Position numbers and translations under genes: made by a program. Below the pieces are notes generated by a model. The model made no database searches, was not told the DNA's origin, and saw nothing but the letters and a program-made list of their open reading frames with translations. Positions 4,239-41,807 of a stretch of 64,000 nucleotides of DNA are shown piece by piece (the stretch's first letter is position 1; each line of letters begins with the position of its first letter). Source of the stretch: an uncultured bacterium (GTDB taxonomy: Bacteria; Verrucomicrobiota; Kiritimatiellia; PWTM01). The stretch covers positions 5,422 to 69,421 of the forward strand of contig CAKZPT010000062.1 in NCBI GenBank assembly GCA_937139365.1. The letters are read 5' to 3'.

Positions 4239-4262
4239 CAGGGCCCCGTCCTTCCCCTGTTT

Positions 4263-9145: not shown

Positions 9146-9328
9146 GGTGCCATCCTTTCGTTCCGAACTCTGAAGGCGCTGGGCAGGACATGGCAAGGCG
9201 TTTCGAGGTGACCGGGCGGGGTGGCGCCACGTCGTCGCGCCGCCCTCCGCGCCCCTCCGCAGCCCAACCGGGGAAATTCTCCCTGACCGGCGGGCCACAG
9301 CCGGCAGACGAGACCGGAGGAGATGCCC

Positions 9329-9404
<76 letters not shown>

Positions 9405-20933: not shown

Positions 20934-22002
20934 GACCGCCCTTTCGCCGCCGACGGCCGGCGGCTCGCCGTTGACGCTTCGCCGAAACGGACCGCCGGCG
21001 CGGCGTCCCTGCCGTTTTCGCCGGCCGCCGCGCGGCGCGTTGTCGGGCCCGCCGCGGCCGGCGGGCAGTTTTGGCGTGGCGGGGAGCCATAGCCGTCGTG
21101 TTATCGCCGTCGGCCGACGGGGCCGCCGCGGCCGCCGCCATCTCCTCCGGCGCGAACGGCGCCTCCGGCGGCGGGTAGTTCGGCCGCGGGACTTTTTCCT
21201 CGAGCAGGTCCCGCAGCTTCGACAGGGCGCTGTTTTGGAGCTGCCGCACGCGCTCGCGGGTGATGCGAAACCGCTTGCCGACATCCTCGAGCGTCTCGAT
21301 GGGGGCGCCCTGCAGGCCGAAGCGGTATTTCAGAATCTCGCGCTCGCGCAGCGGCAGATAGCGCAGCAGCCGCGTTGCCTCGCTCTTCAACTGGGCGTCG
21401 TTGATCTCCTCGAACGGCGTGCGCGCGCGCTCGTCCCCGATGATGTCGCCGAACGTGCCGCCGTCGTCGTCGCCGATCGGCGCGTCGAGCGACGCGGGCC
21501 GAATGGCGACCGTCTGCCAGTGGCTGACGGTGGACTCTTCCACCCCCAGCTCCGCCGCCAGCTCGGCGTCGGTGGGGTCCCGCCCGAGTTCCTCCGAGAG
21601 CTTGCGCTCCGCCTTTCGCATCCGTGAAATCTTGTCCACCAGGTGGGCCGGCAGGCGGATCGTCTTGCTCTGGTTGGCCAGCGCCCGCTTGATCGCCTGT
21701 TTGATCCACCAAGCGGCGTAGGTGCTGAGCTTGCCGCCCTTTTTCGGGTCGAACCGCTCGACGGCCTTGACCAGCCCGATGTTGCCTTCGGAGATCAAAT
21801 CCAGCAGCGGCAGGCCGTACCGGGCGTAATCCTGCGCGATTTTGACCACCAGCCGGAGGTTGGCGGCGATCATCTGCTGGCGGGCCTCCCGGTCGCCACG
21901 CCGGATGCGCGCCGCCAGCTTGACCTCCTCCCTGGGGGTCAGCAGATCCACCTCGCCGATCTCCTGCAGATAGAGGCGGATCGTCTTGTCGCTTTCGCCC
22001 AT
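20920..22002 (-). CDS. RNA polymerase sigma factor, sigma-70 (RpoD/SigA) family, with an unusual Ala/Arg-rich C-terminal tail of about 95 aa
   Basis: Regions 1.2 to 4 are recognisable ([38 protein letters not shown], and the region-4 [30 protein letters not shown]). An extension rich in R, A and P follows. Start candidates are the ATG at 22002 (SD GGGAG upstream) or 22056. The stop overlaps apt by 14 nt. Confidence 0.85.
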
Positions 22003-22143
22003 GATCTCGCCTGTCTCCCACCCCACGCGGCCGACCGCCGCCCCGGGAAGGCTCATGATGGCACATTCCGGACCCGTGCGGAAGGCGGATTTGCCTTATC
22101 CGCCCGACACCCCTACCATCGGCGGCCGTCCGATGCACCGGCG

Positions 22144-24318
22144 ATGACGCGCGAGTCCCCAACCATCCTGTTCGTCTGCACCGGCAACACCTGCCGCAGC
22201 CCGATGGCCGAAGCGCTGTTCCGCCTGCGGGCCGGACTCGGCAGCCGATGGCGGGCCGTCTCTGCCGGCGTCGCCGCCATGGGGGGCCTGCCCGCCACCC
22301 CGGAAAGCGTCGAGGTCGTTCGCGAAGCCGGCGGCGACCTCTCGGGCCACCGGACCCGCCGACTGACGGCCGAGCTGGTCGCGCAGGCCGACATCATCGT
22401 CGCGATGAGCCGCTCGCACGCCCGCCAGGTGGCCGACGCCTTTCCTGAGGCCGCCGGCCGCATCCGGCTGCTCTCCTCCTACCGGGTCGGCGGGGTCGAG
22501 CAGGACATCGCCGACCCCGTCGGCCAGTCTCTGTTTGTCTATCGGAAAATTCGGGACGAAATTGACAGCGCCATCGCCGACCTCCTGATCGAGCTGCATC
22601 GGCCGACACAGCCGGCGGAGGCGCCACGGAGGGCCACGATGAGGATCGCGATCGGTTCGGATCATGGCGGATGGGAGATGAAACGGCGGGCGGTCGAGTG
22701 GCTGACGGCCCGTGGGCACGAGGTGCTCGATCTGGGCCCGGAGACCGCCGAGCCGGTGGATTACCCCGACTACGCCGCGGAGGTCGCCCGGCGCGTCGCG
22801 TCGGGTGGCGCAGAGACGGGCATCGTGCTGTGCACCAGCGGCATCGGGGCCTCGATCGCGGCCAACAAGGTGCCGGGCGTGCGCGCAGCCCTCTGCCTGA
22901 CCCCCCACATGGCCGAAATGGCCCGCCGCCACAACAACGCCAACGTGCTGGCCCTCGGCGGCGAGACGGTTCCCGCCGACCAGCTCGGGCCCATTCTCGA
23001 GGCATGGCTGGGTGCGGGGTTCGAAGCGGGCCGCCACGAACGCCGCGTCGGAAAGATCGCGCGCATCGAGCGGGAGGAGGCCGCCATGGCCGCGCTGGCC
23101 GCCACCGATCCCGAGGTGGCCGCCGCCATCGCCGTCGAGGCCCGCCGGCAGACGGACAACCTCGAGCTGATCGCCTCGGAAAACTACACCAGCCCCGCCG
23201 TGCGCGAGGCGGTGGGGTCGGTCCTCACCAACAAGTACGCCGAGGGCTATCCGGGCCGGCGGTGGTACGGCGGCTGCGAGCACGTGGATGTCGTCGAGCG
23301 CCTGGCCATCGAGCGCGCCAAAGCCCTGTTCGGCGCCGAGCACGCCAACGTCCAACCCCACTCCGGCAGCACGGCCAACATGGCCGTCTATTTTGCCCTC
23401 CTCGAGCCCGGCGACACGCTAATGGCGATGAGCCTGGCCGACGGCGGCCATCTCACCCACGGCCACCCAATGAACTTCTCCGGCCGCTTCTTCCGCATTG
23501 TGCCCTACGGCGTCTCACGCGAGACGGAGCGGATCGACTACGACGCCCTTGAGCGGCTGGCCACCGAACACCGTCCGAAGATGATCTGCGCCGGCGCCAG
23601 CGCCTACCCGCGCATCATCGACTTCGAACGGCTGCGGGCCATCGCCGACTCGGTCGGCGCGCTGCTGATGGTGGACATGGCCCACATCGCCGGTCTGGTC
23701 GCCGGCGGCGCACATCCCAACCCCGTGCCGTGGTGCGACGTGGTCACGACCACCACCCACAAGACCCTGCGCGGCCCCCGGGCGGGGCTGATCCTCTGCC
23801 GCGAAAAGCACGCCGCCGCCATCGACAAACAGTGCTTCCCCGGCATCCAGGGCGGTCCCCTGATGCACGTGATCGCCGGCAAGGCCGTCTGCCTTCGGGA
23901 GGCCGCCGCGCCGGAGTTTCGCGACTACGCCGCCCGGATCGTCCGCAACGCCCAGGTGCTCGCCCGCGTCCTCGTCGAAGGGGGACTGCGCATCGTGTCG
24001 GGAGGCACCGACAACCACCTGATGTTGGTGGACGTCACCCCCTTCAAGCTTACCGGCAAGGACGCCGCCGCCGCCCTCGACCGCGCCTGCATCACGGTCA
24101 ACAAGAACGCGATCCCGTTCGACACGCGCAGCCCATTCGTCACCTCCGGCATCCGCATCGGCACCCCCGCCGTCACCACCCGCGGCATGGGCGAGGCGGA
24201 GATGGAGGTCATCGGCCGGTGCATCCTCGGGGTCCTTCGCGCTCCATCCGACGAGACCGCAATCGCGCGCGTCCGCGAGGAGGTCCTCGCCCTCACCCGC
24301 CGCTTCCCGGTGCCCTGA
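22144..24318 (+). CDS. In-frame fusion ORF: low-molecular-weight protein-tyrosine phosphatase (22144..about 22608), ribose-5-phosphate isomerase B (ATG 22639), and serine hydroxymethyltransferase GlyA (ATG 23086..24318)
   Basis: PTP: [19 protein letters not shown] (CX5R P-loop). RpiB: [22 protein letters not shown]...[21 protein letters not shown]. GlyA: [14 protein letters not shown]...[11 protein letters not shown]...[16 protein letters not shown]. There are no stop codons between the three modules. Each internal ATG has its own SD (GGAGG 9 nt and GGGAGGAGG 7 nt upstream). The track ORF 21643..24318 is a single 891-aa frame. Confidence 0.8.
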
Positions 24319-27596: not shown

Positions 27597-28349
27597 ATGA
27601 GGTTTCTTCTCTACAACATCCGCTACGGCACCGGCGGCGTCCCGGGGCGGGGCCCCTTTCAGTTTTTCCGCACCACCGGCCGCCATCTCGAACGGATCGT
27701 GGAGTTCATCCGCGAGGTCAACCCCGACGTCGCCGGCCTGGTCGAGGTGGACGCCGGATCGTACCGGTCGTTCCGTCGAAACCAGGCCCACGTGATCGCC
27801 GAACGCCTGGGCCATCATCACGCCTATTGCTCGAAGTATGCCGTCGGTTCGCTCACCTCCCGTCTTCCCATCCTAAGCAAGCAGGGCAACGCCTTCGTGG
27901 TCCGCGACAGCCGCCGCAGCGTTCGCGCCCACTACTTCCGGCGGGGCGTCAAGCGGATGGTGCTCGAACTCGAGCTGTCCGAGGTGGTGTTCTTTCTCGT
28001 CCACCTCGCGCTGCGCGGGCACGTCCGCACCCACCAGCTCGAAGACCTCTACCACCTCATCCGCCACGTGCGGAAACCGATGATCGTCGCCGGCGACTTC
28101 AACGCGTTCTGGGGGCCTCAGGAGATCGCGTTGTTCCGCGCAGCGCTCGAACTCAAAAGCGCTGACGCCCTGGACCGGCCCACCTGGCCCAGTTGGCAGC
28201 CGCACCGCCAACTCGATTTCATCCTCCACAGCGCCGGCATCGTCGTGGACCGGCTCGAGGTGCCGAATGTGCTGCTCTCCGACCACCTCCCCGTGATCTG
28301 TGATTTTCACCTCCAGCCTGGCCGCCACACGCCCCACAAACACGCCTGA
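27597..28349 (+). CDS. Endonuclease/exonuclease/phosphatase (EEP) family protein
   Basis: MRFLLYNIRYGTGG...VAGLVEVD, IVAGDFNAF and LDFILHS...SDHLPVICDF are EEP catalytic motifs. Confidence 0.8.
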   Translation: MRFLLYNIRYGTGGVPGRGPFQFFRTTGRHLERIVEFIREVNPDVAGLVEVDAGSYRSFRRNQAHVIAERLGHHHAYCSKYAVGSLTSRLPILSKQGNAFVVRDSRRSVRAHYFRRGVKRMVLELELSEVVFFLVHLALRGHVRTHQLEDLYHLIRHVRKPMIVAGDFNAFWGPQEIALFRAALELKSADALDRPTWPSWQPHRQLDFILHSAGIVVDRLEVPNVLLSDHLPVICDFHLQPGRHTPHKHA

Positions 28350-28400: not shown

Positions 28401-29987
28401 TTGTCCAATCGAATGTACACGCCGTTGACATTTGTATTTCCATCCTCGAGAATGGCCATTGAACCCGTGCCTGTCCCCATGCGGGCCCCCGGTCGGTCCC
28501 ATCGGACGGGCGCAACTGAGGAGCAGGATGTCGTGAGAGAGTTGAAGCCCATTCCCATGGCGGTCGTGCCGCCGCTCGATCCCGATTTCGTGCCCGCCGC
28601 ACTCTGGCACCGCGCCTTCGACGAGGCCGCCCACCGGTTGGATGGTCCAGTCCTCGAGTTTGCGTTCGTCCGCCCCGACGGCACGTGTTTCCGCCATTCG
28701 ATGCGCATTCTGCCCCATCGCTCCGACACCGCGTCCCTGAACCTGCGCGCCGTGGAACGGACATTGAAATTCCTGCTGTGGATGAAAGGCGCGTCGCGGA
28801 TCCTCGTGGCGGGCTGCCCGCAGTTGGCCGTGGAACTCGGGCGCATCTACAGCCCGACCGGTGCTCGCGCCTTCGACGACGACCTGATCGGCCGCCGTGT
28901 GTTTTTAGAGCACCTGTCGGTCGAAGCGACCGACGCCCGTGCCCTCCCGCCGCCCAACGAGCCGGTCGTCGCCCTCGGTCGGAACCTCGACGGCTGCCGT
29001 ATCGGCTTCGACCTTGGCGGCAGCGACCGGAAATGCGCCGCCGTCATCGATGGCCAGGTCGTCCACTCCGAAGAGGTTCCCTGGAGCCCGTATTTCGAAA
29101 AGGACCCTATCTACCACATCGAAGGCGTGCGCGATTCTCTTCGCCGCGCGGCGGCCCACCTGCCGCGGGTGGATGCGATCGGCGGCAGCGCAGCGGGGGT
29201 ATACATCCAGAACGAGCCGCGCGTCGCCTCGCTTTTCCGCGGCGTCTCGCCGGAGGAGTTCGAGCGGTCGATCCGTCCGATGTTCCACCGCCTCCGCGAC
29301 GAGTGGAACGGCGTGCCGTTCGTCGTCGCCAACGATGGCGAGGTGACGGCGTTGGCCGGCTCGATGGCGTTGGGGGAGAACGCCGTCCTCGGCGTCTCGA
29401 TGGGCACCAGCGTCGCGGCGGGATGGTGCGACGCGGCCGGCCACATCACGACCTGGCTTAACGAGCTGGCGTTCGTTCCGGTGGACTATCGCGACGGCGC
29501 TCCCGCCGACGAGTGGTCGGGCGACGTCGGTTGCTGTGTGCAGTACTTCAGCCAGCAGGGCGTCGCTCGGCTCGCGGCGAAGGCCGGGATCTCCTTCCCC
29601 GACGCCACACCCGCAGCCGAGCGGCTGGTCGAGGTGCAGCGGCGCATGGCGGCGGGCGACGAGGCGGCGCTGCGCATCTTCGAGACCATCGGCGTGTGCT
29701 TCGGGTACGCGCTGGCGCGGTTCGCGGAGTTCTACCCGATGCGCCACGTCCTGGTCCTGGGCCGCGTGACGTCGGGGGCTGGCGGCGCGGTGATCCTGGA
29801 GCGCGCGACGGACGTCTTGCGCCGTCAGTTCCCGGAGCTGGCCGAGCGCCTGCGCCTGCACACGCCGGACGAACAATCGAAGCGGCACGGGCAGGCGATC
29901 GCCGCCGCGAGCCTGCCGGCGATCCCGTGCGCCCCCGCCTCGACGGAGGAGGCGTTGAGGCTTCTGTCCCCACGGCCTTTCTCGTAA
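28401..29987 (+). CDS. ASKHA-superfamily sugar kinase-like protein (ROK or BadF/MurK-like) with a roughly 190-aa N-terminal extension
   Basis: RIGFDLGGSDRKCAAVIDGQVVH (phosphate-1 motif), ENAVLGVSMGTSVAAGWCDAAGHI (ROK-like glycine-rich motif) and VLVLGRVTSGAGG (adenosine motif). The N-terminal 190 aa have no recognised domain. The start is uncertain (528 aa from 28401). Confidence 0.55.
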   Translation: MSNRMYTPLTFVFPSSRMAIEPVPVPMRAPGRSHRTGATEEQDVVRELKPIPMAVVPPLDPDFVPAALWHRAFDEAAHRLDGPVLEFAFVRPDGTCFRHSMRILPHRSDTASLNLRAVERTLKFLLWMKGASRILVAGCPQLAVELGRIYSPTGARAFDDDLIGRRVFLEHLSVEATDARALPPPNEPVVALGRNLDGCRIGFDLGGSDRKCAAVIDGQVVHSEEVPWSPYFEKDPIYHIEGVRDSLRRAAAHLPRVDAIGGSAAGVYIQNEPRVASLFRGVSPEEFERSIRPMFHRLRDEWNGVPFVVANDGEVTALAGSMALGENAVLGVSMGTSVAAGWCDAAGHITTWLNELAFVPVDYRDGAPADEWSGDVGCCVQYFSQQGVARLAAKAGISFPDATPAAERLVEVQRRMAAGDEAALRIFETIGVCFGYALARFAEFYPMRHVLVLGRVTSGAGGAVILERATDVLRRQFPELAERLRLHTPDEQSKRHGQAIAAASLPAIPCAPASTEEALRLLSPRPFS

Positions 29988-30016
29988 AGTAACGCCGATT
30001 CCGCGGGAGCCATTCG

Positions 30017-30937
30017 ATGCCCAACCACGAAACCCTGGTGGTGCTGGCGGCGGGGATCGGCAGCCGGTACGGCGGCTTGAAGCAACTCGACCCGGTCGGA
30101 CCCAACGGCGAGGTCATTCTGGATTATTCGGTGTACGACGCGGTGCGCGCCGGCTTCGGACGCGTCGTCTTCATCATCCAGCGCGCCTTCGAGGCGGCCT
30201 TTCGCGATCGGATCCTGAGCCGCTACGAAGGGCACATCTCGGCCGCGCTGGCGTTCCAGGAGCTGGACATGCTGCCGGAGGGCTTCGCGGTGCCGGAGGG
30301 CCGGCAAAAGCCGTGGGGCACGGCGCATGCGGTGCTCTGCGCGGCGTCCGCCCTCGGCGAGGCGCCGTTCGCGGTGATCAACGCCGACGACTTCTACGGA
30401 CGCGGCGCGTACGAGCTGTTGATCGAATTTCTGCGCGCCCCGCAGCCGCCGGGGCCCCCGACCTACGCGCTGGTCGGCTACCGGCTGCGCAACACCCTCT
30501 CCGACCACGGCGCCGTCGCGCGCGGCGTTTGCACCGTCAACGCCGGCCTGGAGCTGGTCGCGGCCGAGGAGCTCACCGCCATTGAGGCGCTACCCGGCGG
30601 CCGGGCGCGCAACCGTTATCCCGACGGTTCGGTGCACGAGCTGACGGGCGACGAATTCGTCTCGATGAACCTGTGGGGCTTTTTGCCCTCCGCGCTCCCG
30701 CTGATCCGCGCCGGGTTCGAGCGGTTTCTCCGCGAGCACGGCGGCGATCCGAAGGCGGAGTTCTACATCCCCACCGTGGTCACGGAGTGGCTGCGCGCCG
30801 GCCGCGCGCGGTGCCGCGTGCTGCCGACCTCCGAGACGTGGTTCGGAGTGACCTACCGCGAGGACAAGCCCCGCGTCGTGGAGAGCCTGCGCGCCCTGGT
30901 CGCCGCTGGCGTCTACCCCGAACGCCTCTGGAGCTGA
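30017..30937 (+). CDS. Sugar-1-phosphate nucleotidyltransferase (MurU-like N-acetylhexosamine/MurNAc-1-P uridylyltransferase candidate)
   Basis: LAAGIGSRYGGLKQLDPVGPNGEVILDYSVYDAVRAGF (NTP-transferase G-loop), KPWGTAHAVL and VINADDFYG; 306 aa. Confidence 0.7.
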   Translation: MPNHETLVVLAAGIGSRYGGLKQLDPVGPNGEVILDYSVYDAVRAGFGRVVFIIQRAFEAAFRDRILSRYEGHISAALAFQELDMLPEGFAVPEGRQKPWGTAHAVLCAASALGEAPFAVINADDFYGRGAYELLIEFLRAPQPPGPPTYALVGYRLRNTLSDHGAVARGVCTVNAGLELVAAEELTAIEALPGGRARNRYPDGSVHELTGDEFVSMNLWGFLPSALPLIRAGFERFLREHGGDPKAEFYIPTVVTEWLRAGRARCRVLPTSETWFGVTYREDKPRVVESLRALVAAGVYPERLWS

Positions 30938-30942
30938 CCGCC

Positions 30943-32079
30943 GTGCGCCCCCCTCCGCCGCCGGACCGCCTGCGCGAGATCGTCGGCCGGTTCCGCATTT
31001 CGGGCGACGTCGGCGACATCCGCCCGTACGGCAGCGGCCACATCAACGACACGTTCGTCGTCGAGGTCGACCAGGCCGGCGCGCCGGTCCGCTACATCCT
31101 GCAGCGTCTGAATACCGACGTGTTCCGCGACCCCGCCGCGGTGATGCGCAACATCGGCCGAGTCACCCGCCACCTCGCCGACCGCCTTCGCCGCGCCGGC
31201 GTGCGCGACGCCAGCCGCCGCGCCCTGACGCTGATCCCGACGCTCGACGGTGCGGACTGGTTGGACGAACCCGACGGTGCCTGGCGGGTCTACCTCTTCA
31301 TCGAGCGCGCCCGCACCTACGACCAGATCGAGCATCCCGGCCAGGCGGAGGCCGCCGCCCGAGCGTTCGCCCGCTTCCAGCTGGAACTGGCCGACCTGCC
31401 CGTCGGGTCGCTCGCCGAGACCATCCCCGACTTCCACCACACCCGCCGCCGCTTCGAGGCGCTGCGCGAGGCCGTCCGGGCCGATCCCCTCGGCCGCGCC
31501 TCCGGATGCCGCCCGGAGATCGAGTTCGCCTTCGCCCGCGAGGGCATCGTGGACACGTTGCTCGACGCCCGCGCCGCCGGCCTCTTGCCTGACCGCGTCA
31601 CGCACAACGACACCAAGCTCAACAACGTGATGCTGGACGACGCCACCGGCGAGGGGGTCTGCGTGATCGACCTCGACACCGTGATGCCCGGCCTCGTCCT
31701 GTACGACTTCGGCGACATGTGCCGCACCGCGACCCGCCCCACCCCCGAGGACGAACGCGACCTCGGGCGGGTCCGGATGCGGCCGGACATGTTCGAGGTC
31801 CTCGCCCGCGGCTACCTCTCCGCCGCCGCCGACTTCCTCCTCGATGCCGAGGTCGAACGGCTCGCGTTTTCGGCCCGGCTGATCACCTTCGAGATCGGCA
31901 TCCGGTTTCTGGCCGACTACCTCCTCGGCGACGTCTATTTCAAAACCCACCGCCCCGGCCACAACCTCGACCGGTGCCGCGTCCAGTTCCGGATGGTCGA
32001 GTCGTTCGAGGCGAACGAAGACCGGATGCGGGAAATCGTCGACGCGCTGTGGCGCCGCGCGAGGGAGGCCCGACCATGA
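30943..32079 (+). CDS. APH-fold anomeric sugar kinase (AmgK/NahK-like N-acetylhexosamine or MurNAc/GlcNAc 1-kinase)
   Basis: Body of track ORF 30673..32079 from a GTG at 30943 (VRPPPPPDRL...), 6 nt after the nucleotidyltransferase stop. PYGSGHINDTFVV (glycine loop), HNDTKLNNVMLD (the HNDTKxNN catalytic motif I recall as NahK/AmgK-specific) and VIDLDT (DxD). Confidence 0.75.
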   Translation: MRPPPPPDRLREIVGRFRISGDVGDIRPYGSGHINDTFVVEVDQAGAPVRYILQRLNTDVFRDPAAVMRNIGRVTRHLADRLRRAGVRDASRRALTLIPTLDGADWLDEPDGAWRVYLFIERARTYDQIEHPGQAEAAARAFARFQLELADLPVGSLAETIPDFHHTRRRFEALREAVRADPLGRASGCRPEIEFAFAREGIVDTLLDARAAGLLPDRVTHNDTKLNNVMLDDATGEGVCVIDLDTVMPGLVLYDFGDMCRTATRPTPEDERDLGRVRMRPDMFEVLARGYLSAAADFLLDAEVERLAFSARLITFEIGIRFLADYLLGDVYFKTHRPGHNLDRCRVQFRMVESFEANEDRMREIVDALWRRAREARP

Positions 32080-34061
32080 ACATGTCCGGACTTGACGTCG
32101 CGATCGTGATCGCCTTTCTGGCTTCGGTGGTCGTCGTCGGCTCGCTGGCCGCGAAGCGGGCCGGACGCAGTTCGGCGGACTTCTTCCTTTCCGGCCGCTC
32201 GATGCCGTGGTGGCTGTTGGGCGTCTCGATGGTCGCCTGCACGTTTTCGTGCGACACGCCGAACCTCGTCACCGACATCGTCCGCACCGGCGGCGTGGCG
32301 GGAAACTGGGCGTGGTGGGCGTTCCTGCTGACCGGCATGCTGACGGTGTTCGTCTACGCCAAGCTCTGGCGGCGATCGGCGCTCGACACGGACCTCGGCT
32401 TCTACGAGATCCGCTACAGCGGCCGTCCCGCCGCCGTACTGCGCGGCTTCCGCGCCCTCTACCTCGGTGTGCTGTTCAACGTGCTGGTGATGGCGACCGT
32501 CTCGCTGGCGGCGATCAAGATCGGACAGGTGATGTTCGGCCTTCGGCCGGGCGAGACCCTCTTCTACGCTTCCGCCGGCGTGGCGATCTACTCCGTCCTG
32601 GGCGGCCTGACGGGCTCGATTTGGGCGGACTTTTACCAGTACTCGGTGGCGATGTTCGGCGCGATCGCGGCGGCCTGGTACGCGGTGACCTCGCCGGCGT
32701 TCGGCGTCGGCGGTCTCTCGAACCTCGTCGCGCACCCGAACCTCGCCGGGAAGCTGTCGTTCCTGCCGCCGGCGCCGTCGGCCGACGACCTCAGTCCGCT
32801 GGTGGGCCTCTTCGTCCTGCCGGTGGCGATCCAGTGGTGGAACGTCTGGTACCCCGGCGCCGAGCCGGGCGGGGGCGGATACGTCGCGCAGCGGATGCTC
32901 TCGGCCAAAAACGAGCGGCATGCCGTTGGCGCCACGCTGTTGTTCAACTTCCTCCACTACGCGGTGCGCCCCTGGCCGTGGATCCTCGTCGCCCTCGTTT
33001 CGCTGGTCGCCTTTGCGCCCGACCCGCCCGAGGTTCGCGACGCCGCCCGCGCCCGCCTGCAATCGCCGGAGCTGGCCGCGGAGGTGGCGAGGTACGACGC
33101 CGGACGAGCGGACGAGCTGCCCCCCGAGCGCCGGGCCGAGATCCGGCTGCTCAAGGCCCGCGCGGCGGGCGTGGGCCGTTTGGCCGAGGCCTTCCCGGTC
33201 GTCCACGACCAGTTCCTGCGCAACGACATCGCGTACCCCGCGATGATCGCCCGCCTGCCGAAGGGCCTGCTGGGGATCGTCGTCGCGTCGCTGATCGCCG
33301 CCTACATGTCCACCATCGCCACGCACCTCAACTGGGGCTCGTCGTACGTCGTGAACGACTTCTACCGCCGCTTCCTGCGGCCCGGCGCATCGGAGCGCGA
33401 GCTGGTCGCCGTCGGGCGTGCCACGATGCTGGCGCTGCTGCTGCTGTCGGCCTGGGTGGCGATCCAGATGACGAACGCCAAGGCCTCGTTCGACCTGCTG
33501 TTGGCCGTCGGGGCGGGGACGGGGCTGATCTACATTCTCCGCTGGTTCTGGTGGCGGCTGAACGCCTGGAGCGAGATCAGCGCGATGATCCTCTCGTTCG
33601 CGATCGCCTGCTTCTTCGCTTGGGGCGCGCCGCGCCTGGGCCTGGAGGCCGCAATGCGCGACGCCGGCTGGCTGAAGATCATGAGCTACGGTGACTGGAA
33701 ACTCCTCCTAGGCATCGCCGGCACGACCGCCGGCTGGCTGGCGGTCACCTGGATGACGCCGCCGGTGGATGGCCGCGTCCTGCGCGAGTTTTACCGCAAA
33801 GTGCAGCCCGGCGGCCCCGGCTGGCGGCCGGTCGTCGCTGCCGCGCGGGCGGAGGGCGAGGTGCTGGAACGGGAGACCGGATGGGACGTCCCGCTAGGCC
33901 TGGTGTGCATGATGCTCGGCTGCCTCGCGGTCTGGGGTGCGCTCTTCTCGATCGGAAGCTGGCTGTACGGTCGCCGCATCGGCGCGCTCGCGCTGGCGGC
34001 CGTCGCCGCCGTTTCGCTCGCCGCCCTGCTCCGGCTCAGCCGCCGCCTCCGCTTCCGCTGA
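32076..34061 (+). CDS. Sodium:solute symporter family (SSF) transporter
   Basis: The MNMSGLDVAIVIAFL start overlaps the kinase stop (ATGA). A polytopic SSF architecture of 661 aa (GGYVAQRMLSAKNERHA, NWGSSYVVNDFYRRF). Confidence 0.85.
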   Translation: MNMSGLDVAIVIAFLASVVVVGSLAAKRAGRSSADFFLSGRSMPWWLLGVSMVACTFSCDTPNLVTDIVRTGGVAGNWAWWAFLLTGMLTVFVYAKLWRRSALDTDLGFYEIRYSGRPAAVLRGFRALYLGVLFNVLVMATVSLAAIKIGQVMFGLRPGETLFYASAGVAIYSVLGGLTGSIWADFYQYSVAMFGAIAAAWYAVTSPAFGVGGLSNLVAHPNLAGKLSFLPPAPSADDLSPLVGLFVLPVAIQWWNVWYPGAEPGGGGYVAQRMLSAKNERHAVGATLLFNFLHYAVRPWPWILVALVSLVAFAPDPPEVRDAARARLQSPELAAEVARYDAGRADELPPERRAEIRLLKARAAGVGRLAEAFPVVHDQFLRNDIAYPAMIARLPKGLLGIVVASLIAAYMSTIATHLNWGSSYVVNDFYRRFLRPGASERELVAVGRATMLALLLLSAWVAIQMTNAKASFDLLLAVGAGTGLIYILRWFWWRLNAWSEISAMILSFAIACFFAWGAPRLGLEAAMRDAGWLKIMSYGDWKLLLGIAGTTAGWLAVTWMTPPVDGRVLREFYRKVQPGGPGWRPVVAAARAEGEVLERETGWDVPLGLVCMMLGCLAVWGALFSIGSWLYGRRIGALALAAVAAVSLAALLRLSRRLRFR

Positions 34062-34114: not shown

Positions 34115-35930
34115 TCACCGACGCCCTGGATGTGCGCCGCGAAACCGATCCGGTCGAGGAGTAACCCAAGGTCGCTCTCGCGCCAGTCGAGGAGGTCGAG
34201 CCACACCGCCTCCGCGGGACGCGACCAGCCGAACGTTGCCCGATACCGCGCCACCCCGGAGAAGAACCGCACCGCGGCCTCCGGGTGATCGTCCAGCGGC
34301 ATCAACCGCTCGAGCCGGATCGCCTCGGGGCAGGTCCAACCCCTCAGGAAAGGCGACCGTCCACGGTCCCGTGATGTCGAGCGGAACCGGCGCCTCCAAC
34401 AACTCCTCATGCACCCGGCCATCTGATCAGACGAACCGATGGTGCCCGCCCTCGGCCGTCCACCACGCCCAACTCCGCCCGTCCCGCGCCAGACGGGGCA
34501 GGCCCAGCAGCAGGCGCTCCTCCCGCGACCGGCCCTCGTCGGCCAGCCGCGCGACCTCCGCCTCACTGAACCCCACTGACCACACCGCCCACACGCCGCT
34601 TTCGCCACGGAAGTCCTTCGGCGGACGGGACGGACCGCTCACCGAAGGATGAGCCGGCCGTGCGCCTTCCACCCCTTCAGCCACGGTTCGGCCATCCAGG
34701 CACAGGCGCGCCCGCCGCCGCTCCGGCGGGACCTGCTCCAACAAGCGGCCGACGAACTGACCGAAATGGTGCGTGGCCCAGCGGCGGTTCATCTTGTCCA
34801 CCTCGAGGCCGGTGCCTTCCTCGGAGGCCGGGTGGTTGCGGATCCCCGCGGGCGTCATGCCGATCCGGAACACGCGCCACTCGCCCGGCGGCGGCGTCCA
34901 GCGCAGTCGGCCGTCCGCGTCCAGCCGGCCGGTGAGGTCCACTACGCGGTCAGGCGGGCTCGCCCCGACCGGATCGTCCGCCATCGGCTGGGGCGCCCAC
35001 CGGTAGTGCTCCCAGGGCGGGAGGGGCTCGGGGAACATCTTGCCGAGCTGCTTTTCGATGTAGAACTCCAGCCGGGGCCCGCGAAAAGTTCGATCTCCCG
35101 CAGCGCCGCAGTGCCGGCCCTGGGCCGCAGCGTCACGCAAGCAAGTCGAGGTCGCCGGCGCGAAGGCGATCGCGATGGGGCCGGAGGTCGCAAATCCGAC
35201 AAGCAGATCGGGCTTCCGCAGTTCGAAAGCCGCGCGGCGAATCGGCCGCCAGCGGTCTCCGGCGCGCCTTCAGCTCCACCTCCGCGCGGTACGAAACCGC
35301 CGCCAGGTGCAACACACCAGCGCGCCACGAAGGGGTGGGCGCAGGTGAGCTCGATCTGCACCGGCCGGACGCCCAGCCCGACGGGCTCCGCCAGATCGCC
35401 GTCGGCCAGCCGCGAGACGTCCGAGACGGCCGGACGGATTTCCACGGCAGGACGGAAGGCGGCGATGGACACGTCGTCTTCCAGCTCCGCGGGCGCCGCC
35501 AGCAGGACGATGTCCTAAAACGGCTCGGCCGGCGGCGGCAGGACGATGTCGACGGGTGTGGGGCCGCGTACCCGGGCTTCCGCGATGGCGACCCGGCGCA
35601 TCGCCTGCGTCGCGGCGATCCACGGGCCGCCGGACTGGCTCCAGCCGAGGCAGTTGAACAGCCCGATGTCCCCCCCAGCCGCCCGGCTTCGAGCAGCGTG
35701 TGTTCGAAGGCCGCCCATCACCCGTCCGAGAACACGCGCACCGTGCCGGCAGTGGCGTCCCGGAGATAAATGTGGCCGATCAGCGCCGCTCCAATGCCCG
35801 CCCGCCGCATCGCCTCCAAGTCTCCCGTGATGCCGGAGGTGGGGACGTTATCGCTGATCCGGTACCGATGACACCACGGCCGCGTCTCGTCCGGCGGTTC
35901 CCTGAAACCCGCGGCCAGCGGCAGCCCCAA
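34115..35930 (-). pseudogene. Glycoside-hydrolase-like gene shattered into at least 5 frame fragments
   Basis: Minus-strand pieces 35718..35930 (ISDNVPTSGITGDLEAMRRAGIGAALIGHIY), 35515..35721 (GGDIGLFNCLGWSQSGGPWI), 34942..35472, 34427..35140 (LEFYIEKQLGKMFPEPLPPWEHYRW...TPPPGEWRVFRIGMTP), 34036..34608 and 34115..34414 lie in three different frames. The family is not resolved. A 15-bp local duplication CGGCAGGACGATGTC lies at 35497-35552. Confidence 0.5.
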
Positions 35931-36039: not shown

Positions 36040-36408
36040 TCAATCCGGCATGGCGGCCGGGAGGGACAGCGGCACCCACACGTCACAGACGTGCGACGAG
36101 CGGTTTGCCGACACCAACCGCCAGCGCTCCCAAAGTTCCTCCCGCCGCCCGTCGCCGGCGCGACGTTCCTCGCGCGCCATCGACACGGAGCTTGGCGGGC
36201 AAAATCCTGTGGAATTGGTCAAGGAAAGAACCCGCACAACGGTCATCGAATGCAGCCCCAGCGAGAGGTCCGCGGCGTCGGACGTCAAACGCCCGGCGAC
36301 CCCGGCATGGAACAGCGCAGCCGCGACCGCGCCCGTCAGCGCTGCCGCCACCGCCAGCGCCACGAGCACCTCGATCAGGGTAAACCCCAACCCGCGGCCG
36401 TCGCGCAC
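36040..36408 (-). CDS. Prepilin-type N-terminal cleavage/methylation domain protein (minor pseudopilin)
   Basis: ...RGLG|FTLIEVLVALAVAAALTGAVAAAL. A GTG start at 36408 (SD GGAGGG 14 nt upstream) gives an 8-aa leader. The track ORF starts at the ATG at 36486 (34-aa leader), which is less likely. Confidence 0.6.
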   Translation of the reverse strand: MRDGRGLGFTLIEVLVALAVAAALTGAVAAALFHAGVAGRLTSDAADLSLGLHSMTVVRVLSLTNSTGFCPPSSVSMAREERRAGDGRREELWERWRLVSANRSSHVCDVWVPLSLPAAMPD

Positions 36409-36757
36409 GCGGCCGAAGCGCGCCCTCCGCCGAATCTCCGGCCTCCTTGCACGTCCCGAACCCCGCATTTCGGGCGCTTGTACCATGCCCGGCGGCGCGG
36501 CTCAAGAACGGATGGGCGGGCGCAAGCCGGCGATCCTGGGCCTGCAGGCGCTCAACCGCGGCAACTCCCCCGCGATGCCGTTGAGCGGTTGCAGGGTTCA
36601 AGTTTGCCCCAGCCGCAGCCATGCCCATCCGCAAACGGTCTACGCTCGTCTTCACCCTTCGGGCTACGCCAGGCCTTCGGCAAGCCGAGGCCCTGGGGAA
36701 GGCATGCGTGCGGCATGCCGAAATCGTAGGGTTCGACCTTGCTCGAGCCGCCGGCGG

Positions 36758-37219
36758 CTACAGGTCGGCCGAGGAAATATCGGCGGCGTCGCCGGTCCCC
36801 CCCGGCCGTCCGTCGGCGCCGTAGCTGAGGATTTCGTATGGCAACCCGTCCCGGCCGGGTACGGCGTACACGAATTCCCGTCCCCACGGGTCGCGGGGGA
36901 GCTTGCGGCTGCTGAGGTAGCCTTCGGGCGGATACGTTTCGGGGGCCGGCGGGACCGCCGGTTTGCGCACGAGGGCCTCCAACCCCTGCTCCATCGTCGG
37001 GTAGCGGCCCTGTTCGATCTGATAGTGCGACAGCGCGTTTTGCAGCTCGCGAATCTGCAGCTTCGCCGTGTCCACACGGGCCTTGCGCTGCTGGCCGATC
37101 ACGTTGACGGTGACCAGCGTCGCCAACCCCATCAGGATGGCAAGTACGACGAGGACCTCGATCAGGGTGAAACCGGCCGAAGCGCGCCGGCGCGCGCCAT
37201 GGCGGTGGTCTCCGCTCAT
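36758..37219 (-). CDS. gspG: Type II secretion system major pseudopilin GspG
   Basis: AG|FTLIEVLVVLAILMGLATLVTVNVIGQQRKARVDTAKLQIRELQNALSHYQIEQGRYPTMEQGLEALV...DPWGREFVY...YEILSYGADGRPGGTGDAADI is a canonical GspG sequence along its whole length. Confidence 0.85.
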   Translation of the reverse strand: MSGDHRHGARRRASAGFTLIEVLVVLAILMGLATLVTVNVIGQQRKARVDTAKLQIRELQNALSHYQIEQGRYPTMEQGLEALVRKPAVPPAPETYPPEGYLSSRKLPRDPWGREFVYAVPGRDGLPYEILSYGADGRPGGTGDAADISSADL

Positions 37220-39480
37220 GTCTCAGCCTCCTTCTTGCGGGAGCGGCCGCGGCGGGCCGGCGGGGGATCGTTCTCTTCGACGCCGACGGCCTTCAACCGG
37301 TCGATCAGATCCTCCAGCCGGGCCACGTAATAGGCGACGTTCTCGTCGCGCCGTTCGGGGTCCCAGTCGGCGACCCGGCGCGCATGGGCGTGAATGGGCA
37401 CGGACTTCCTGTCGCCGGTGACGTAGTACGAAATCGTGTCGCCGGCCCGGTACGGCCGCCCAGAGGCCAGGGCCAGCTCGCAGGCGGCGTCGCGCGGGCC
37501 ACCGCTGGCCTGCCGGCGCGCGGCATAGGTTTCGGGCGACTGGGCCAGCCGCTCGGTGCGGGCGAGCCGCTGGATCGGCCATTCCCGTCGCACGAGCGCC
37601 CGGCGGTACCGATCGGCCAGCGCATCCAACTCATCGTCCCGCCCGGCCAGCTTCAAGCCGATCCATTCCCGGATGAAATCCCGCAGGTACGGCTCCAGGC
37701 CGCGGGATCGCAACGCCGCGCCGGTGATCAGAATCTCCCCGTCGGAGGTCATCAACGCGTAGTTTTTTCGGCGGTAGCTGAACATGGCCTCGTAGGTCGC
37801 GTCGAACTCCAGGTCGACGCCCTCCGGCAGGACCGACCGGACCCGATCGCGGAACCGCGCCAGGTCCTCATCGCCGCCCGGCGGGGGGATGAAAAAGATG
37901 CCGTCGGTGTCCACCTCGACCGGCCGGCCACCGGCGGCCCGCACGGCCTCGACCATCGCGCGCAGCAGTTCCCGGCCTCGCGCGGCCACCCGCTCCGCGG
38001 CGTCGAAGTCGTTGAACCGCGCCGCCTCGAAGCCCAAGTATCCGTAGAAGGAGTTGATGAGGATCTTGAAGGCGCTTTGCATCGCCTCCTCGAACGCACG
38101 CTCGGCGCCCGCGGCCGCCGCCATCCGCGCGCGGGCCTCGAAGCGGACGTCGCGGAGCCGTTCGAGCAGCCGCAGAAAGAACCCCAGCGAATCCGACGCC
38201 GGGCCGATGCGGTCCACGAGCATGATCGACGGATACAGCGACCGCACATCGCAGTGGTGGACCGGCCGGACGACGCCTGTTTCGTAGACCTCCGTCAGGC
38301 CGCCCTCGAACGGGCGCGCCGGCTGCGGGCGCGGGATCGCGGCGCGCGCAGCGAGGTAGCCCCGCAGCATCACCGCATCGATCTTCGCGGCCGCGCCGCG
38401 CAGCACGACGTTCTGCAAGCTCATCGGCACCATGCGGGCCTGGGCCACGTACACCGGCCCCAGGCGCGCGGCCAGGCCGGCCGTCTCCTGTAAGTCCGCC
38501 GCCAGGTAACGCAGCACGCGATCGGGGTCGCGGTCGAACGTCCGTCCGATCTCCGACCCCTCGATGTATTCGCGCCCCTCCCTCGCGAAACCGAAATGGC
38601 GGGCCGCCTCCTTCAGCCCCAGGCCGGGCAGGGTGCGGTGGACGACGTCGTAGAGCTGCGCCAGGAAATAGGTGTCCACCACCGTCCGTCCGAAGAGGTC
38701 GGCCCGCGGATAACTGACGGCGCGGTCGGCGGCGACGAAGCGGCCAGGGCGGATCGCCATCGGTCGGTCGAGCCGGCCCAGTCGCAGCTCGATCCCGTGG
38801 CGAGCCGCGCGGCGCGCCAGATAGTCGAGGTCGAAGGCGAAGATGTTGTGTCCCTCGACGAGGTCAGGATCGCGCTCGCGGACCAGCTCGACCATCCGGC
38901 GGATCAGGGAGGGCTCGTCGTGCTCGCCGGCGTGCAGGAGCGCGCTCCAGCCGGTGTTGTCGGACAGCCCGATCGCGAGAATCCGGTCCTCCTCGCGGTC
39001 TGGGTTGGAGAACTCGAAGCCTTCGGCGGTCCGAGTTTCGATGTCGAGCTGGAGCCGCCGGAGATCGCCGAACGACAGACCGTCGAACAGGGTCCGGCCC
39101 CGCTCCATCAGGTGCTGTTGGACGGCATCGTTGATGAAGAAATACGGGGCCTCCCGGTCGAACGGGGTCCGGCCGCTGGCCTTCTGCAACCAGCGGACGG
39201 CTGTTTCCAGCGCCGCCCACGTGGGGCACCGGACCAGGATGCGCAGGTCGCCGGGGCCCTCCAGCGGCTCGACCTCATGGGGGGCGGGGCAGCCGCGCAC
39301 CAGCTCCGCCGACTCGGCCCAGAGGAACGGACGGAACGGCTCTTCGGCCGTGCGCACGCGGCCGCCCTCGCGCCGGAAGAGGACCGCGACATCGCCGCCC
39401 GGCCGCGGTTCGCATTCCACCGCGACCAGGCCCGGAATCGGGTCGTGCCCGTGGAGCAGCGCGCGGTCGGCGGCGTCCAT
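37216..39480 (-). CDS. polB: Family-B DNA polymerase (Pol II-like)
   Basis: ORF 37216..39996, trimmed to the ATG at 39480. Exo motifs FDIET/LDIETR and YNIFAFD are present. Polymerase motifs are KILINSFYGYLGF (motif B) and VEVDTDGIFF (motif C, DTD); 754 aa. Confidence 0.85.
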   Translation of the reverse strand: MDAADRALLHGHDPIPGLVAVECEPRPGGDVAVLFRREGGRVRTAEEPFRPFLWAESAELVRGCPAPHEVEPLEGPGDLRILVRCPTWAALETAVRWLQKASGRTPFDREAPYFFINDAVQQHLMERGRTLFDGLSFGDLRRLQLDIETRTAEGFEFSNPDREEDRILAIGLSDNTGWSALLHAGEHDEPSLIRRMVELVRERDPDLVEGHNIFAFDLDYLARRAARHGIELRLGRLDRPMAIRPGRFVAADRAVSYPRADLFGRTVVDTYFLAQLYDVVHRTLPGLGLKEAARHFGFAREGREYIEGSEIGRTFDRDPDRVLRYLAADLQETAGLAARLGPVYVAQARMVPMSLQNVVLRGAAAKIDAVMLRGYLAARAAIPRPQPARPFEGGLTEVYETGVVRPVHHCDVRSLYPSIMLVDRIGPASDSLGFFLRLLERLRDVRFEARARMAAAAGAERAFEEAMQSAFKILINSFYGYLGFEAARFNDFDAAERVAARGRELLRAMVEAVRAAGGRPVEVDTDGIFFIPPPGGDEDLARFRDRVRSVLPEGVDLEFDATYEAMFSYRRKNYALMTSDGEILITGAALRSRGLEPYLRDFIREWIGLKLAGRDDELDALADRYRRALVRREWPIQRLARTERLAQSPETYAARRQASGGPRDAACELALASGRPYRAGDTISYYVTGDRKSVPIHAHARRVADWDPERRDENVAYYVARLEDLIDRLKAVGVEENDPPPARRGRSRKKEAET

Positions 39481-39491
39481 CTGTGTGGCCC

Positions 39492-41807
39492 TCACCCCCC
39501 GAGGCGCACGGAGGAGTACGGCATGGCCAGCAGCCACAACTGGATCCAGCCGCTGATGTCGTCGTCGCGTCCGTCGTAGCCGGGCTCGTGCCGGAGGCCA
39601 ACACCCCAGCCGATGCAGTCCATCTTGTGCTGCAGGAAATACGAATGCTCCTCCAACCGGCCGTCCTGGACGTTGTAGCGGGCGTAGGCGCCCCAGCTCC
39701 ACTTCGCCTTCGGGTAGAGGCGGAGTTGGGCCGCGACCAAGTCGCGCCGTTCGGCCTGATAGAGGTAGTTGACCGACACCGACCACGCGTCGCCTGAGGC
39801 CCACGAGAGCTGACCGTCGAAGAGCGTCAACCCTTCCCCGTAGAAGTCGAACAGCGACTTGAAGTCGAACCGAAAGGCGCGGACGGGCCAGAGGCGGGCG
39901 TTCACGTAGAGAGGGCCGAACTCGTCCTCGTCCTCGTCTGCGTCGAGGCGGACCACGGTGCCGATGTCGCTGTTGACCAGGTCGTGGACGGACCACGCCT
40001 CGGGAGAGGGCATCTCGCCCAGCCGGGTCTGGTCCATGCCCTCGGTCTCGCGGCTCAGCGGGTCGGTCTCGCGCTCGAAGGAATGGTCCACGTAGAGGAC
40101 GCTTCGCCGGCGGGTCTGGAGCTTGTTGCGCATGCCAAAGCCGATGGTATGGCCGCCGTCGAGCCGGTCCACGCCGTCGAACTGGGGCACCCGCTTCGAC
40201 AGGAGGTCGGGTTCGGGGACGTAGGTGTGGAGCGCGTAGGGCTCGGCGACGTGTCGGAGGCCGCGGCCGAAGACGTTCTCCGCCTCGTCAAGGACTTTGT
40301 AAGCCTTAAAGGAGGTTTCGAAGCCCACTTCCGGCATCGAGCGCAGGTCGCCGCCGAGTTCGCGCTGTGTGGAGAGGATCTTCTCGACAGTGGTCGGCAC
40401 GCCGTTGGAGTCGACCTGCGTGACGACGTTGGTGACGCTAACGGGGGCATCGTACGTGGTCGAGTAGTACGTGCCTCTCCAGCCGGCCCGGGGCGTCAGG
40501 GCGAGGAAGCCGAAGAAGCGCTGCGGCAGGTAGAGCATGTGCCGCGTGTCGATCCGCAAAGCGTCGTAGTCCTCACGGTCAGAGGTCTCGGGGTACACGC
40601 GGCGGAGGGCGGAGGCGGCGGTCCGGCTTTCGTAGTAGAGCGGCAGGTCCCCAAGGCGGAGGGCGGGGATGGTCAGCGTCGCCTCCGGCAGCCGGTCCAC
40701 GTTCTCGTAGAAATCGTTGAGACGGCCGCTGGCAAGGATCGAGAACAGGAAACGGTCGCCGCGGTGGAGCCAGGCTGCCCGGTTCTCGGGCTGGACGCTT
40801 TCGCGGTAGTCGCGGCGGAAGAAGTCCTCCTCGACGAAGGGATCGCTCATCACGGTCGCCTGCGCGAAAAGCGAGCTGCGCTCACCGGCGCGCGACTGGT
40901 GGCGGAGCCGAACGCGGTACCGGTTCTCGTCGTCGAGAGTGTCCCTGCGCTCCTCCTCCTCGCGCTCGTTTCGGTAGAGCTTCCGGTCGGAAACGTAGAA
41001 CCCCTCGAGGTTGCCGCGCAAGCCGACCTCGGGGTTGCGCCAGAGGATGTTCTGGCCGGCGCCGACACCGCGTTCGGAGTAGAGGTTGACGGACGTCCGT
41101 CCCAACAGGGAACCGGTGTCGTTGAGCCCGTAGTTGTACGTCATCAGCAGGAAGCCGCCGAGCCGGGAACTGTAGCCGGGCACGACGTCCCAGCGGCCGG
41201 GTTCGCCCTGCAGGTCGCGCCGGTAATAGGGCACCCACATGATCGGCACCGGCCCGAGGTAGGCGACGGCGTGGTGCAGCGTCGCGTACCGCTGCTGCTC
41301 GAGCGTCGCGCGGGGGGCGCGGATCTCGAATTCGCGGTCGTCGCCCTCGCAGGTGGTCAGCACGACGTCCTCCAGCTCGATCCGGTCGTGACCGACCATG
41401 CGGAACCGCCCGCCGTAAAGGTAGTACGGGTGATGGAAGAGGAGGAACCGTCCGAAATCTCCCTCGCCGGTCTTGTAATTGTAGACGAGGCGTTCGCCCT
41501 TCCAGAGGGTGCCGTCCCACCGGACGAACACGACGCGGCCGCTGGCGACGATTTGGCCGGTCTCGGTGTCGATCTCGACGCGCTCGGCGGCCAGGGTCTG
41601 CCGTCCCTGGCGGATCAGCACGCCGCCCTCGGCGATCTGGAAGCGGCCGTTCTGGCGGCTCTCGATTCGGCCGGCGCGCACATCGTACGGCAGCCCCGCG
41701 TCGGGGTTGGCCCGCTGCAGGGTTCGCGCGGGATCCGCAGCCATCGCCGACGCTGTGATCGCGGCCGCCGCCAGCCGCCTCCAACCTCTTGCCCATCCAC
41801 TTCGCAT
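39492..41807 (-). CDS. lptD: LPS-assembly protein LptD (OstA family)
   Basis: Signal peptide, then an OstA N-domain ([40 protein letters not shown]) and a large C-terminal beta-barrel body; 771 aa. Confidence 0.85.

Follow-up and report, generated by a model that had tools for sequence, protein, structure and literature searches.

What does a bacterium do with four tightly packed genes that encode, in this order, a sugar-kinase-like protein, a sugar-1-phosphate nucleotidyltransferase (NTase), an N-acetylhexosamine (HexNAc) 1-kinase of the NahK family and a sodium:solute symporter (SSF)? The question is raised by a 64 kb stretch of contig CAKZPT010000062.1 from an uncultured member of the Kiritimatiellia, a stretch here called the window. 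In a preliminary description made from the letters of the window, the four genes (genes 1 to 4) had been read as an amino-sugar salvage operon resembling the AmgK/MurU route of Pseudomonas, in a host belonging to the Planctomycetes-Verrucomicrobia-Chlamydiae (PVC) bacteria. Such a host is plausible, the best named homologues being those of Lentisphaerae and Kiritimatiellae, and there is no rRNA in the window. As for the function, our analysis makes it probable that the operon imports HexNAc, that is N-acetylglucosamine (GlcNAc) and/or N-acetylgalactosamine (GalNAc), and phosphorylates it by two routes, one passing through a 1-kinase to UDP-HexNAc and the other through a 6-kinase.

In this scheme, the symporter encoded by gene 4 would import free GlcNAc and/or GalNAc, and the gene 3 kinase would use ATP to convert HexNAc into HexNAc-alpha-1-phosphate, from which the gene 2 enzyme, with UTP, could form UDP-HexNAc and bypass GlmS, GlmM and GlmU. 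UDP-GalNAc and UDP-GlcNAc would be interconverted by a GalE-like epimerase encoded elsewhere in the genome, a gene that is adjacent in other genomes. In the second branch, gene 1 may phosphorylate GlcNAc or glucosamine (GlcN) at O6 and feed the deacetylase/NagB route to which its family is linked in other PVC genomes. The 1-kinase branch leans towards GalNAc because of the epimerases and GH36-like hydrolases of related loci and the precedent of BT4240, a NahK homologue of Bacteroides thetaiotaomicron, and the 6-kinase branch leans towards GlcNAc or GlcN because of its linkage to PIG-L deacetylase and NagB genes. We infer from homology and gene context the substrates, the specificity for UTP, the regiochemistry of gene 1 and the destination of the flux, which could be the envelope, catabolism or both.

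The four genes form a real, conserved operon. All four open reading frames (ORFs) are present and co-directional on the plus strand, as first described (Table 1), and the three junctions reported at that time, of 29 nt, of 5 nt with a GTG start and of -4 nt at ATGA, are read directly in the sequence. The TAA of gene 1 (29985-29987) is followed after 29 nt by the ATG of gene 2 (30017), the TGA of gene 2 (30935-30937) is followed after 5 nt by the GTG of gene 3 (30943), and the stop of gene 3 and the start of gene 4, which ends at 34061, share ATGA at 32076-32079. A GGAG-type ribosome-site motif can likewise be read 7-9 nt 5' of all four starts, the G+C content at the third codon position (0.85-0.91 for the ORFs of genes 1, 2 and 4) indicates that these three are coding, and the gene calls of an ENA metagenome contig nearly identical to the window (ERZ27245459:k141_157643) comprise the same four genes. 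The identical cluster occurs in a Kiritimatiellae metagenome-assembled genome (MAG; locus L002) and on another contig (L085), whose gene 1 homologue is named Lentisphaerae by NCBI. Because the same four genes recur in L002 and L085 in the same order and with the same 4-nt overlap between the NahK and SSF genes, the arrangement exceeds what chance would produce. An EEP-family gene (27597-28349) and an LpxL-like gene were considered as further members and excluded because of a 183-nt spacer with a promoter-like site and because both are missing in L002 and L085. AP_endonuc_2 genes flank the four-gene cluster in L002.

Table 1. Coordinates of the operon genes and of the features within and upstream of them, as positions in the window.
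Feature	Position	Strand	Description
Promoter-like site TTGACA-17 nt-GAGAAT	28425..28453	+	10/12 consensus matches; upstream of likely gene 1 start
Imperfect 16-nt palindrome CCATCCTCGAGAATGG	28440..28455		overlaps -10 hexamer of promoter-like site
Gene 1	28533..29987	+	484 aa, two domains; predicted divergent ROK-fold (ASKHA) sugar kinase
Gene 1 N-terminal domain	28533..28982	+	~140-150 aa, alpha/beta
Gene 2	30017..30937	+	306 aa, sugar-1-phosphate nucleotidyltransferase, PDB 3pnn family
Gene 3	30943..32079	+	378 aa, NahK-family N-acetylhexosamine 1-kinase, APH fold, GTG start
Catalytic loop HNDTKLNN of gene 3	31603..31626	+	residues 221-228; H206-N213 in 4wh1 numbering
Gene 4	32076..34061	+	661 aa, sodium:solute symporter

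By homology, gene 3 is an anomeric HexNAc 1-kinase of the NahK family. In a search of all PDB sequences it matched only Bifidobacterium NahK (4ocu, 4wh1 and 4ocj; E 5.4e-88 to 8.4e-86), with an alignment that spans residues 9-374 of 378 and an identity of 43% over 350 aligned positions. The Pfam APH model was matched at E 7e-24, and no NCBIfam model matched the protein. In the alignment, D223, K225, N228 and D243 (the last in IDLDT) are identical to D208, K210, N213 and D228 of NahK, of which we take D208 to be the base, K210 and N213 to act in the catalytic loop, and D228 to bind Mg. The HNDTKLNN motif, which had been regarded as diagnostic of both NahK and AmgK, is an intact NahK catalytic loop, but nothing ties it to AmgK. 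Nor is the APH-fold protein closest to aminoglycoside or homoserine kinases, a possibility that the preliminary description had raised against itself, its best homologues being genuine anomeric HexNAc kinases.

The nearest characterised enzyme, NahK/LnpB of the lacto-N-biose/galacto-N-biose pathway of Bifidobacterium longum (4ocu, 4wh1), is a full-length homologue of gene 3 with the same HNDTKLNN and IDLDT motifs. However, the bifidobacterial gene adjoins those for a GH112 phosphorylase, GalT and GalE, whereas the partners of gene 3 are a pyrophosphorylase-type NTase, an SSF importer and a ROK-like kinase; the operon contains none of the GH112 phosphorylase, GalT-type transferase and GalE of the LnpABCD pathway, and a GalE-like epimerase was found in related loci only. 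Outside the bifidobacteria, BT4240 is a cytoplasmic kinase 39% identical to B. longum NahK with a ~275-fold preference for GalNAc, and its deletion abolishes growth of B. thetaiotaomicron on GalNAc, the steps after phosphorylation being unaddressed in that study (PMC11992087). As far as the two can be likened by description, BT4240 acts on free imported GalNAc and adjoins a sugar transporter gene; it lies in a polysaccharide utilization locus with GH2, GH109 and M60 peptidase genes, while gene 3 is instead coupled to an NTase that would offer the next step.

That NTase, the product of gene 2, is a putative UTP:HexNAc-1-phosphate uridylyltransferase, for which UTP is the predicted nucleotide. 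Over its full length (residues 5-304) it matched PDB 3pnn_A, a 'conserved domain protein' of Porphyromonas gingivalis that belongs to the same family, at E 3.8e-98, and over the N-terminal ~120 aa only it matched GalU-type UTP-glucose-1-phosphate uridylyltransferases at E 4e-9 and weaker. Pfam NTP_transferase scored 23.1 bits against a cutoff of 21.2, and NCBIfam gave very weak GalU/GalF matches alone. The motif LAAGxGSRxGGxKQ is conserved, L10-Q23 being invariant in the family alignment except at positions 14 and 16, and the family is very large, with generically named members; a literature search found no paper or published function for 3pnn. When a profile of 15 family members was run over the entire set of PDB sequences with a threshold of E<=1, it retrieved 3pnn at 3.2e-127, followed by GalU-type enzymes and chance hits, with no match to MurU, RmlA or GlmU; MurU structures are presumably among the PDB entries. 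The earlier NTP-transferase call holds at the level of the class, through Pfam and the 3pnn family, but the likeness to MurU fell away, since the profile finds only 3pnn and GalU-type enzymes.

Stand-alone NTases for UDP-sugar salvage, to which gene 2 is likened by description only, include one shown and one proposed example. In Capnocytophaga, the monofunctional GlcNAc-1-phosphate uridyltransferase GlmUCc (Ccan_15070) makes the cells depend on exogenous GlcNAc for peptidoglycan (Renzi et al., PMC4358021). The NTP_transferase protein Amuc_0031 ('GalY'), which clusters with galE, was predicted by Ravcheev and Thiele to replace GalT in GalK-positive, GalT-negative genomes (PMC5583593), and this 2017 prediction was all that a literature search on Amuc_0031/galY found.

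Gene 4 is a clear member of the SSF family, as previously described, with a Pfam SSF (PF00474) match at E 6.6e-28 and 98.1 bits, well above the cutoff of 22.8. By its nearest solved relatives it is of the sugar type: they are SGLT1/2, vSGLT and SiaT, which carries sialic acid, and not the carriers of proline or pantothenate.

For gene 1, no family of Pfam or NCBIfam was matched at E<=0.01, the ROK models (PF00480) included, and the sequence search of the PDB yielded an insignificant ROK match (E 0.56). Because the domain libraries and the PDB sequence search gave nothing significant, the fold was settled with an AlphaFold2 (AF2) model, built on 28 sequences (predicted local distance difference test, pLDDT, 90.7; predicted template-modelling score, pTM, 0.88), and with Foldseek. 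Foldseek aligned the C-terminal ~330 residues with ROK kinases, among them glucokinase 2qm1, hexokinase 3vov, NanK and NagK, and with the ROK repressors Mlc and Lmo0178 (E 7e-19 to 1e-12), which bears out the ASKHA kinase call of the preliminary description as to fold. The family alignment shows little or no variation in the motifs RIGFDLGGSDRK, NDGEVTALAG, GxSMGTSxAxG and LGRVTSGxGG, and DLGGS, NDGE, MGTS and LGRVTSGxGG can be aligned to the motifs of ROK proteins (3r8e) for phosphate-1, the catalytic Asp, phosphate-2 and adenosine. The whole-protein search found at least 8000 homologues at 90% clustering, and the best 120 of them, 61-75% identical, include MAGs of Lentisphaerae, Kiritimatiellae, Verrucomicrobia and Akkermansiaceae. 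Gene 1 probably encodes a 6-kinase for HexNAc or hexosamine.

The start of gene 1 is most likely the GTG at 28533, not 28401, because the promoter-like site lies within the stretch that begins at 28401, because GAGGAG (28518-28523) precedes the GTG, and because public gene calls and homologue lengths agree with it. The public calls of the near-identical protein give 484 aa (GTG 28533) or 476 aa (ATG 28557), and the homologues are ~465 aa long, their alignment beginning around residue 45-55 of a 528-aa ORF of which TTG 28401 is merely the first possible start. The N-terminal domain therefore measures ~140 aa; the extra domain noticed earlier exists, but it had been given 190 aa because its start codon was placed too far 5'. 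The sigma-70-like site at 28425-28453 is one found against 0.4 expected and is a consensus match alone, not evidence of function. The palindrome at 28440-28455 could be an operator; it is not kept in the Kiritimatiellae locus, and the alignment with that locus revealed no conserved regulatory element upstream of gene 1.

Within the N-terminal domain, R47, D49, E75, R76, K79, W83, R112 and D115 are invariant. When the N-terminal 150 residues were modelled alone by AF2 (pLDDT 94.2), the order of elements was alpha-beta-beta-alpha-beta-alpha-alpha-beta, for which Foldseek retrieved nothing significant from the solved structures (best E 0.05, template-modelling score <0.3). A profile of the domain searched against 1.84 billion cluster representatives matched 1076 proteins (50% clusters) at E<=1e-3; in the complete-looking matches listed (~430-495 aa) the domain is N-terminal to the ROK-like part, and most other listed matches are shorter. 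In P0316, a metagenome cluster representative of 702 aa, NagB is fused upstream of the N-domain/ROK-like protein, and in P0350 an SSF transporter is read through into the gene 1 N-terminal domain. On a speculative reading, this structurally novel domain with its invariant charged residues may add a new substrate-recognition or catalytic function.

The linkage of these families recurs well beyond the window. An NTase-profile scan of one genome per species returned at least 600 stretches, 599 of them confirmed as encoding a relative, and the best 80, together with L001 and L002, were compared as 82 NTase-carrying loci. The best 80 come from Verrucomicrobiota, Kiritimatiellia, Victivallales, Acidobacteriaceae, Bacteroidales, Porphyromonas, Firmicutes and others. 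A NahK homologue adjoins the NTase in 24 of the 82: in 23 of these it comes immediately after the NTase on the same strand, and in the remaining one it lies upstream on the other strand. The pair is hosted by Verrucomicrobiota, Victivallales, Acidobacteriaceae, Bacteroidales, a Deltaproteobacteria MAG and a Thiohalospira MAG. Beside the NTase or the NTase/NahK pair, a GalE-like NAD epimerase is encoded in nine loci, directly after NahK in L012, L023, L039 and L072. The gene 1 family is a linked gene in eight loci, a PIG-L deacetylase in six, an SSF transporter in four and NagB in three, and an MFS transporter gene lies upstream in five, from Bacteroidales-type MAGs. Homologues of gene 4 adjoin NTase/NahK in L002, L034, L039 and L085.

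The order of genes in individual loci shows what the families are combined with. L039, from Coraliomargaritaceae, has a NagB-PIG-L fusion (1914-3824) followed by a ROK-like gene, PIG-L, NTase, NahK, epimerase and SSF; L077, from the Deltaproteobacteria MAG, has epimerase, NTase, NahK, a Sugar_tr/MFS transporter and a GH36-like hydrolase; and L069 has NTase, NahK and a GH36-like hydrolase. A PIG-L deacetylase gene comes after the member of the gene 1 family in L003, L004, L008, L009, L023, L039 and L087; in the last of these, genes for a sugar ABC transporter and for an AraC regulator are succeeded by the gene 1 family, PIG-L and NagB. The NagB fusion of P0316 and the NagB-PIG-L fusion of L039 connect both the gene 1 family and PIG-L with glucosamine-6-phosphate metabolism.

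Another kinase-plus-pyrophosphorylase salvage system, a bifunctional fucokinase/GDP-fucose pyrophosphorylase of the Fkp type, is encoded in L086 (ENA ERZ19051573 scaffold_28, 192-7592), where a ROK-like gene lies ~2.4 kb upstream of it. The Fkp-type gene is flanked by two epimerase/dehydratase genes, the first of which lies, with an unnamed ORF and NusG, between it and the ROK-like gene.

Several points weigh against the proposed import of HexNAc and its phosphorylation by two routes. As far as was found, the literature holds no assay of an enzyme of the operon or of any protein from the families of genes 1 and 2. Among the scanned ORFs of the window, neither the epimerase nor NagA/PIG-L nor NagB was found. 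Because NahK enzymes are promiscuous, homology does not fix the physiological sugar of gene 3. Because no NahK is within reach in 58 of the 82 NTase-carrying loci, the NTase may be a generalist UDP-sugar pyrophosphorylase, such as 'GalY' (PMC5583593). Gene 1, for its part, has the fold and the ATP/catalytic motifs of ROK sugar kinases (NagK, GlcK, NanK; 2qm1, 3vov, 7p7w) in its C-terminal ~330 aa, but it fails the ROK models, carries the conserved ~140-aa N-terminal domain and lacks the zinc motif of that family (GH ... CxCGxxGC), the corresponding region reading NELAF ... EWSGDxGCxVQYFSQQ with one conserved Cys. Since the zinc motif is missing and the Pfam ROK model fails, it is by prediction that gene 1 can be called a kinase.

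Among the alternatives, the one that survives best is a mainly catabolic, Leloir-like module, in which GalNAc would pass through GalNAc-1-phosphate, UDP-GalNAc, UDP-GlcNAc and GlcNAc-phosphate to fructose 6-phosphate, as is implied for the BT4240 kinase, rather than be salvaged for the envelope. This is a real possibility, although on balance a doubtful one. It accords with the need for BT4240 in growth on GalNAc (PMC11992087), with the epimerase directly after NahK in four loci, with the GH36-like hydrolases and sugar transporters adjoining in L069 and L077, and with NagB and PIG-L within the same cluster in L023 and L039. Nevertheless, the operon itself is without epimerase, mutase, deacetylase and NagB, and a pyrophosphorylase route would spend one UTP per sugar unless this is recycled via a transferase. 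Because both uses can coexist, such a module is better seen as a refinement of the two-route scheme proposed here than as an exclusive rival to it.

It is unlikely that gene 2 is instead a general UDP-hexose pyrophosphorylase of the 'GalY' kind and that the operon handles galactose or another non-acetylated hexose. The absence of an adjacent NahK from most NTase loci, the predicted role of the galE-clustered Amuc_0031 as a substitute for GalT (PMC5583593) and the fact that the nearest characterised relatives of gene 2 are glucose-1-phosphate uridylyltransferases would all fit such an enzyme. Yet in the operon only 5 nt separate the NTase gene from that of a NahK-type kinase, the characterised relatives of which use HexNAc as substrate, no GHMP galactokinase is present, and Amuc_0031 is no more than a putative member of the gene 2 family.

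Even less probable is a regulatory role for gene 1, as a ROK-type sugar sensor like NagC or Mlc with the N-terminal domain as its output domain. Such a role would suit its position as the first gene of the operon, the extra domain, the lack of the zinc motif and the presence of the repressors Mlc and Lmo0178 among its fold matches. However, the comparison of the N-terminal domain with solved structures gave no match to a winged helix or another DNA-binding fold, the family shows no variation in the kinase motifs for phosphate and adenosine or in the Asp of the ND motif, and an identity of 60-75% across phyla suits an enzyme better. The fusion to NagB in P0316 and the ROK-like/PIG-L/NagB operon of L087, which already has a separate AraC regulator, also speak for an enzyme.

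The two-step logic of the proposed 1-kinase route has counterparts elsewhere. Eukaryotes salvage HexNAc with GALK2 or a GlcNAc kinase and the UDP-HexNAc pyrophosphorylase UAP1/AGX1, which take free HexNAc to UDP-HexNAc, but these belong to unrelated families (GHMP kinase, UAP1-type pyrophosphorylase) and work without an operon or a dedicated importer. In Pseudomonas putida, AmgK (a MurNAc/GlcNAc anomeric kinase, MurNAc being N-acetylmuramic acid) and MurU (a MurNAc-1-phosphate uridylyltransferase) likewise provide a UDP-amino sugar that bypasses de novo synthesis. That the operon belongs to this system, importing MurNAc (or GlcNAc) to make UDP-MurNAc and bypass MurA/MurB for peptidoglycan recycling, is hardly credible, for although the genes are tightly coupled, the combination of an anomeric APH-fold kinase with an NTase is the same, and NahK-family enzymes are described as promiscuous (PMC6264712), the only solved relatives of gene 3 are NahK, the gene 2 profile does not retrieve MurU, no MurQ, MupP, AnmK or AmpG-type gene occurs among the scanned ORFs of the window, and the GalE-like epimerase, NagB, PIG-L and GH36-like hydrolases linked elsewhere indicate GalNAc/GlcNAc.

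With no MurU homology found, NahK as the closest characterised relative of gene 3, and no link to MupP, AnmK, MurQ, AmpG or NagZ in the operon, the scanned ORFs of the window or the related loci examined, the likeness to AmgK/MurU is, as far as the sequences tell, functional and not one of family membership. The kinase-plus-pyrophosphorylase logic of the preliminary description survives, as does its idea of an exogenous N-acetylated sugar in the sense of an amino-sugar operon, but nothing points to MurNAc. Its suggestion that the operon would be relevant to atypical peptidoglycan in PVC bacteria found no support: the envelope proteins encoded in the window are ordinary Gram-negative ones (LpxL-like, LptD-like and LysM), and the operon has no bearing on the peptidoglycan oddities of these bacteria.

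Other features of the window were recorded beside the operon. Immediately downstream and convergent with it, a 237-aa ORF at 34427-35140 on the minus strand, which the gene calls of the sister contig give as 203 aa, aligns with no more than positions 195-294 of the 743 in the GH106 alpha-L-rhamnosidase model and is probably a gene remnant or pseudogene. Further sugar metabolism may be indicated by a 3-keto-disaccharide hydrolase domain protein (47575-48411, minus strand) near a xylose-isomerase-like TIM barrel (49539-50411, plus strand). One long ORF at 21643-24318 on the plus strand joins LMWPc, LacAB_rpiB (RpiB) and SHMT in one frame, an unusual triple fusion that is called as 724 aa with all three Pfam domains on the near-identical contig. 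At 36040-39996 on the minus strand, two pseudopilin-like genes of the type II secretion system (N_methyl/T2SSG) are directly followed, on the same strand, by a gene for a family B DNA polymerase, in which the sister contig shows DNA_pol_B_exo1 and DNA_pol_B. The G+C content falls to 0.62-0.66 at 4000-9800, against ~0.70, in a stretch that could represent a broken peptidase gene or DNA of foreign origin; it contains a 955-aa ORF (5499-8366, minus strand) and a tRNA (9332-9404), and a separate 194-aa fragment at 3654-4238 matches Peptidase_S9/S15. A MoxR AAA ATPase with a DUF58/VWA partner (820-3158, minus strand), a membrane H+-pyrophosphatase (41959-44043, minus strand) and a CYTH-CHAD protein (58872-60386, plus strand) are ordinary and unrelated to the operon.

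Mucins, chitin, glycosaminoglycans and bacterial envelopes all have GalNAc and GlcNAc as core sugars. A study of 2025 identified a NahK homologue as the sole gateway to GalNAc use in B. thetaiotaomicron and left the next steps open (PMC11992087), and the conserved pairing described here nominates a crystallised NTase family, that of 3pnn, as a candidate for the step after the NahK-type kinase. It is quite possible, although we propose it tentatively, that the NTase/NahK pair, often together with a GalE-like epimerase, constitutes a widespread Leloir-like HexNAc pathway, and that gene 1 founds a new family of PVC amino-sugar kinases that replaces NagK/NagA together with PIG-L and NagB. If so, the pair would supply the steps missing after BT4240-type GalNAc kinases in gut Bacteroidales, Akkermansia-labelled MAGs and many environmental phyla. 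The enzymes of the operon could also serve the chemoenzymatic synthesis of UDP-HexNAc analogues. Furthermore, the gene 1 family represents a large, PVC-wide group of predicted ROK-fold proteins with a new N-terminal domain that standard domain libraries miss, and its repeated linkage to PIG-L and NagB suggests a non-canonical route of amino-sugar catabolism in Verrucomicrobiota, Kiritimatiellia and Lentisphaerota.

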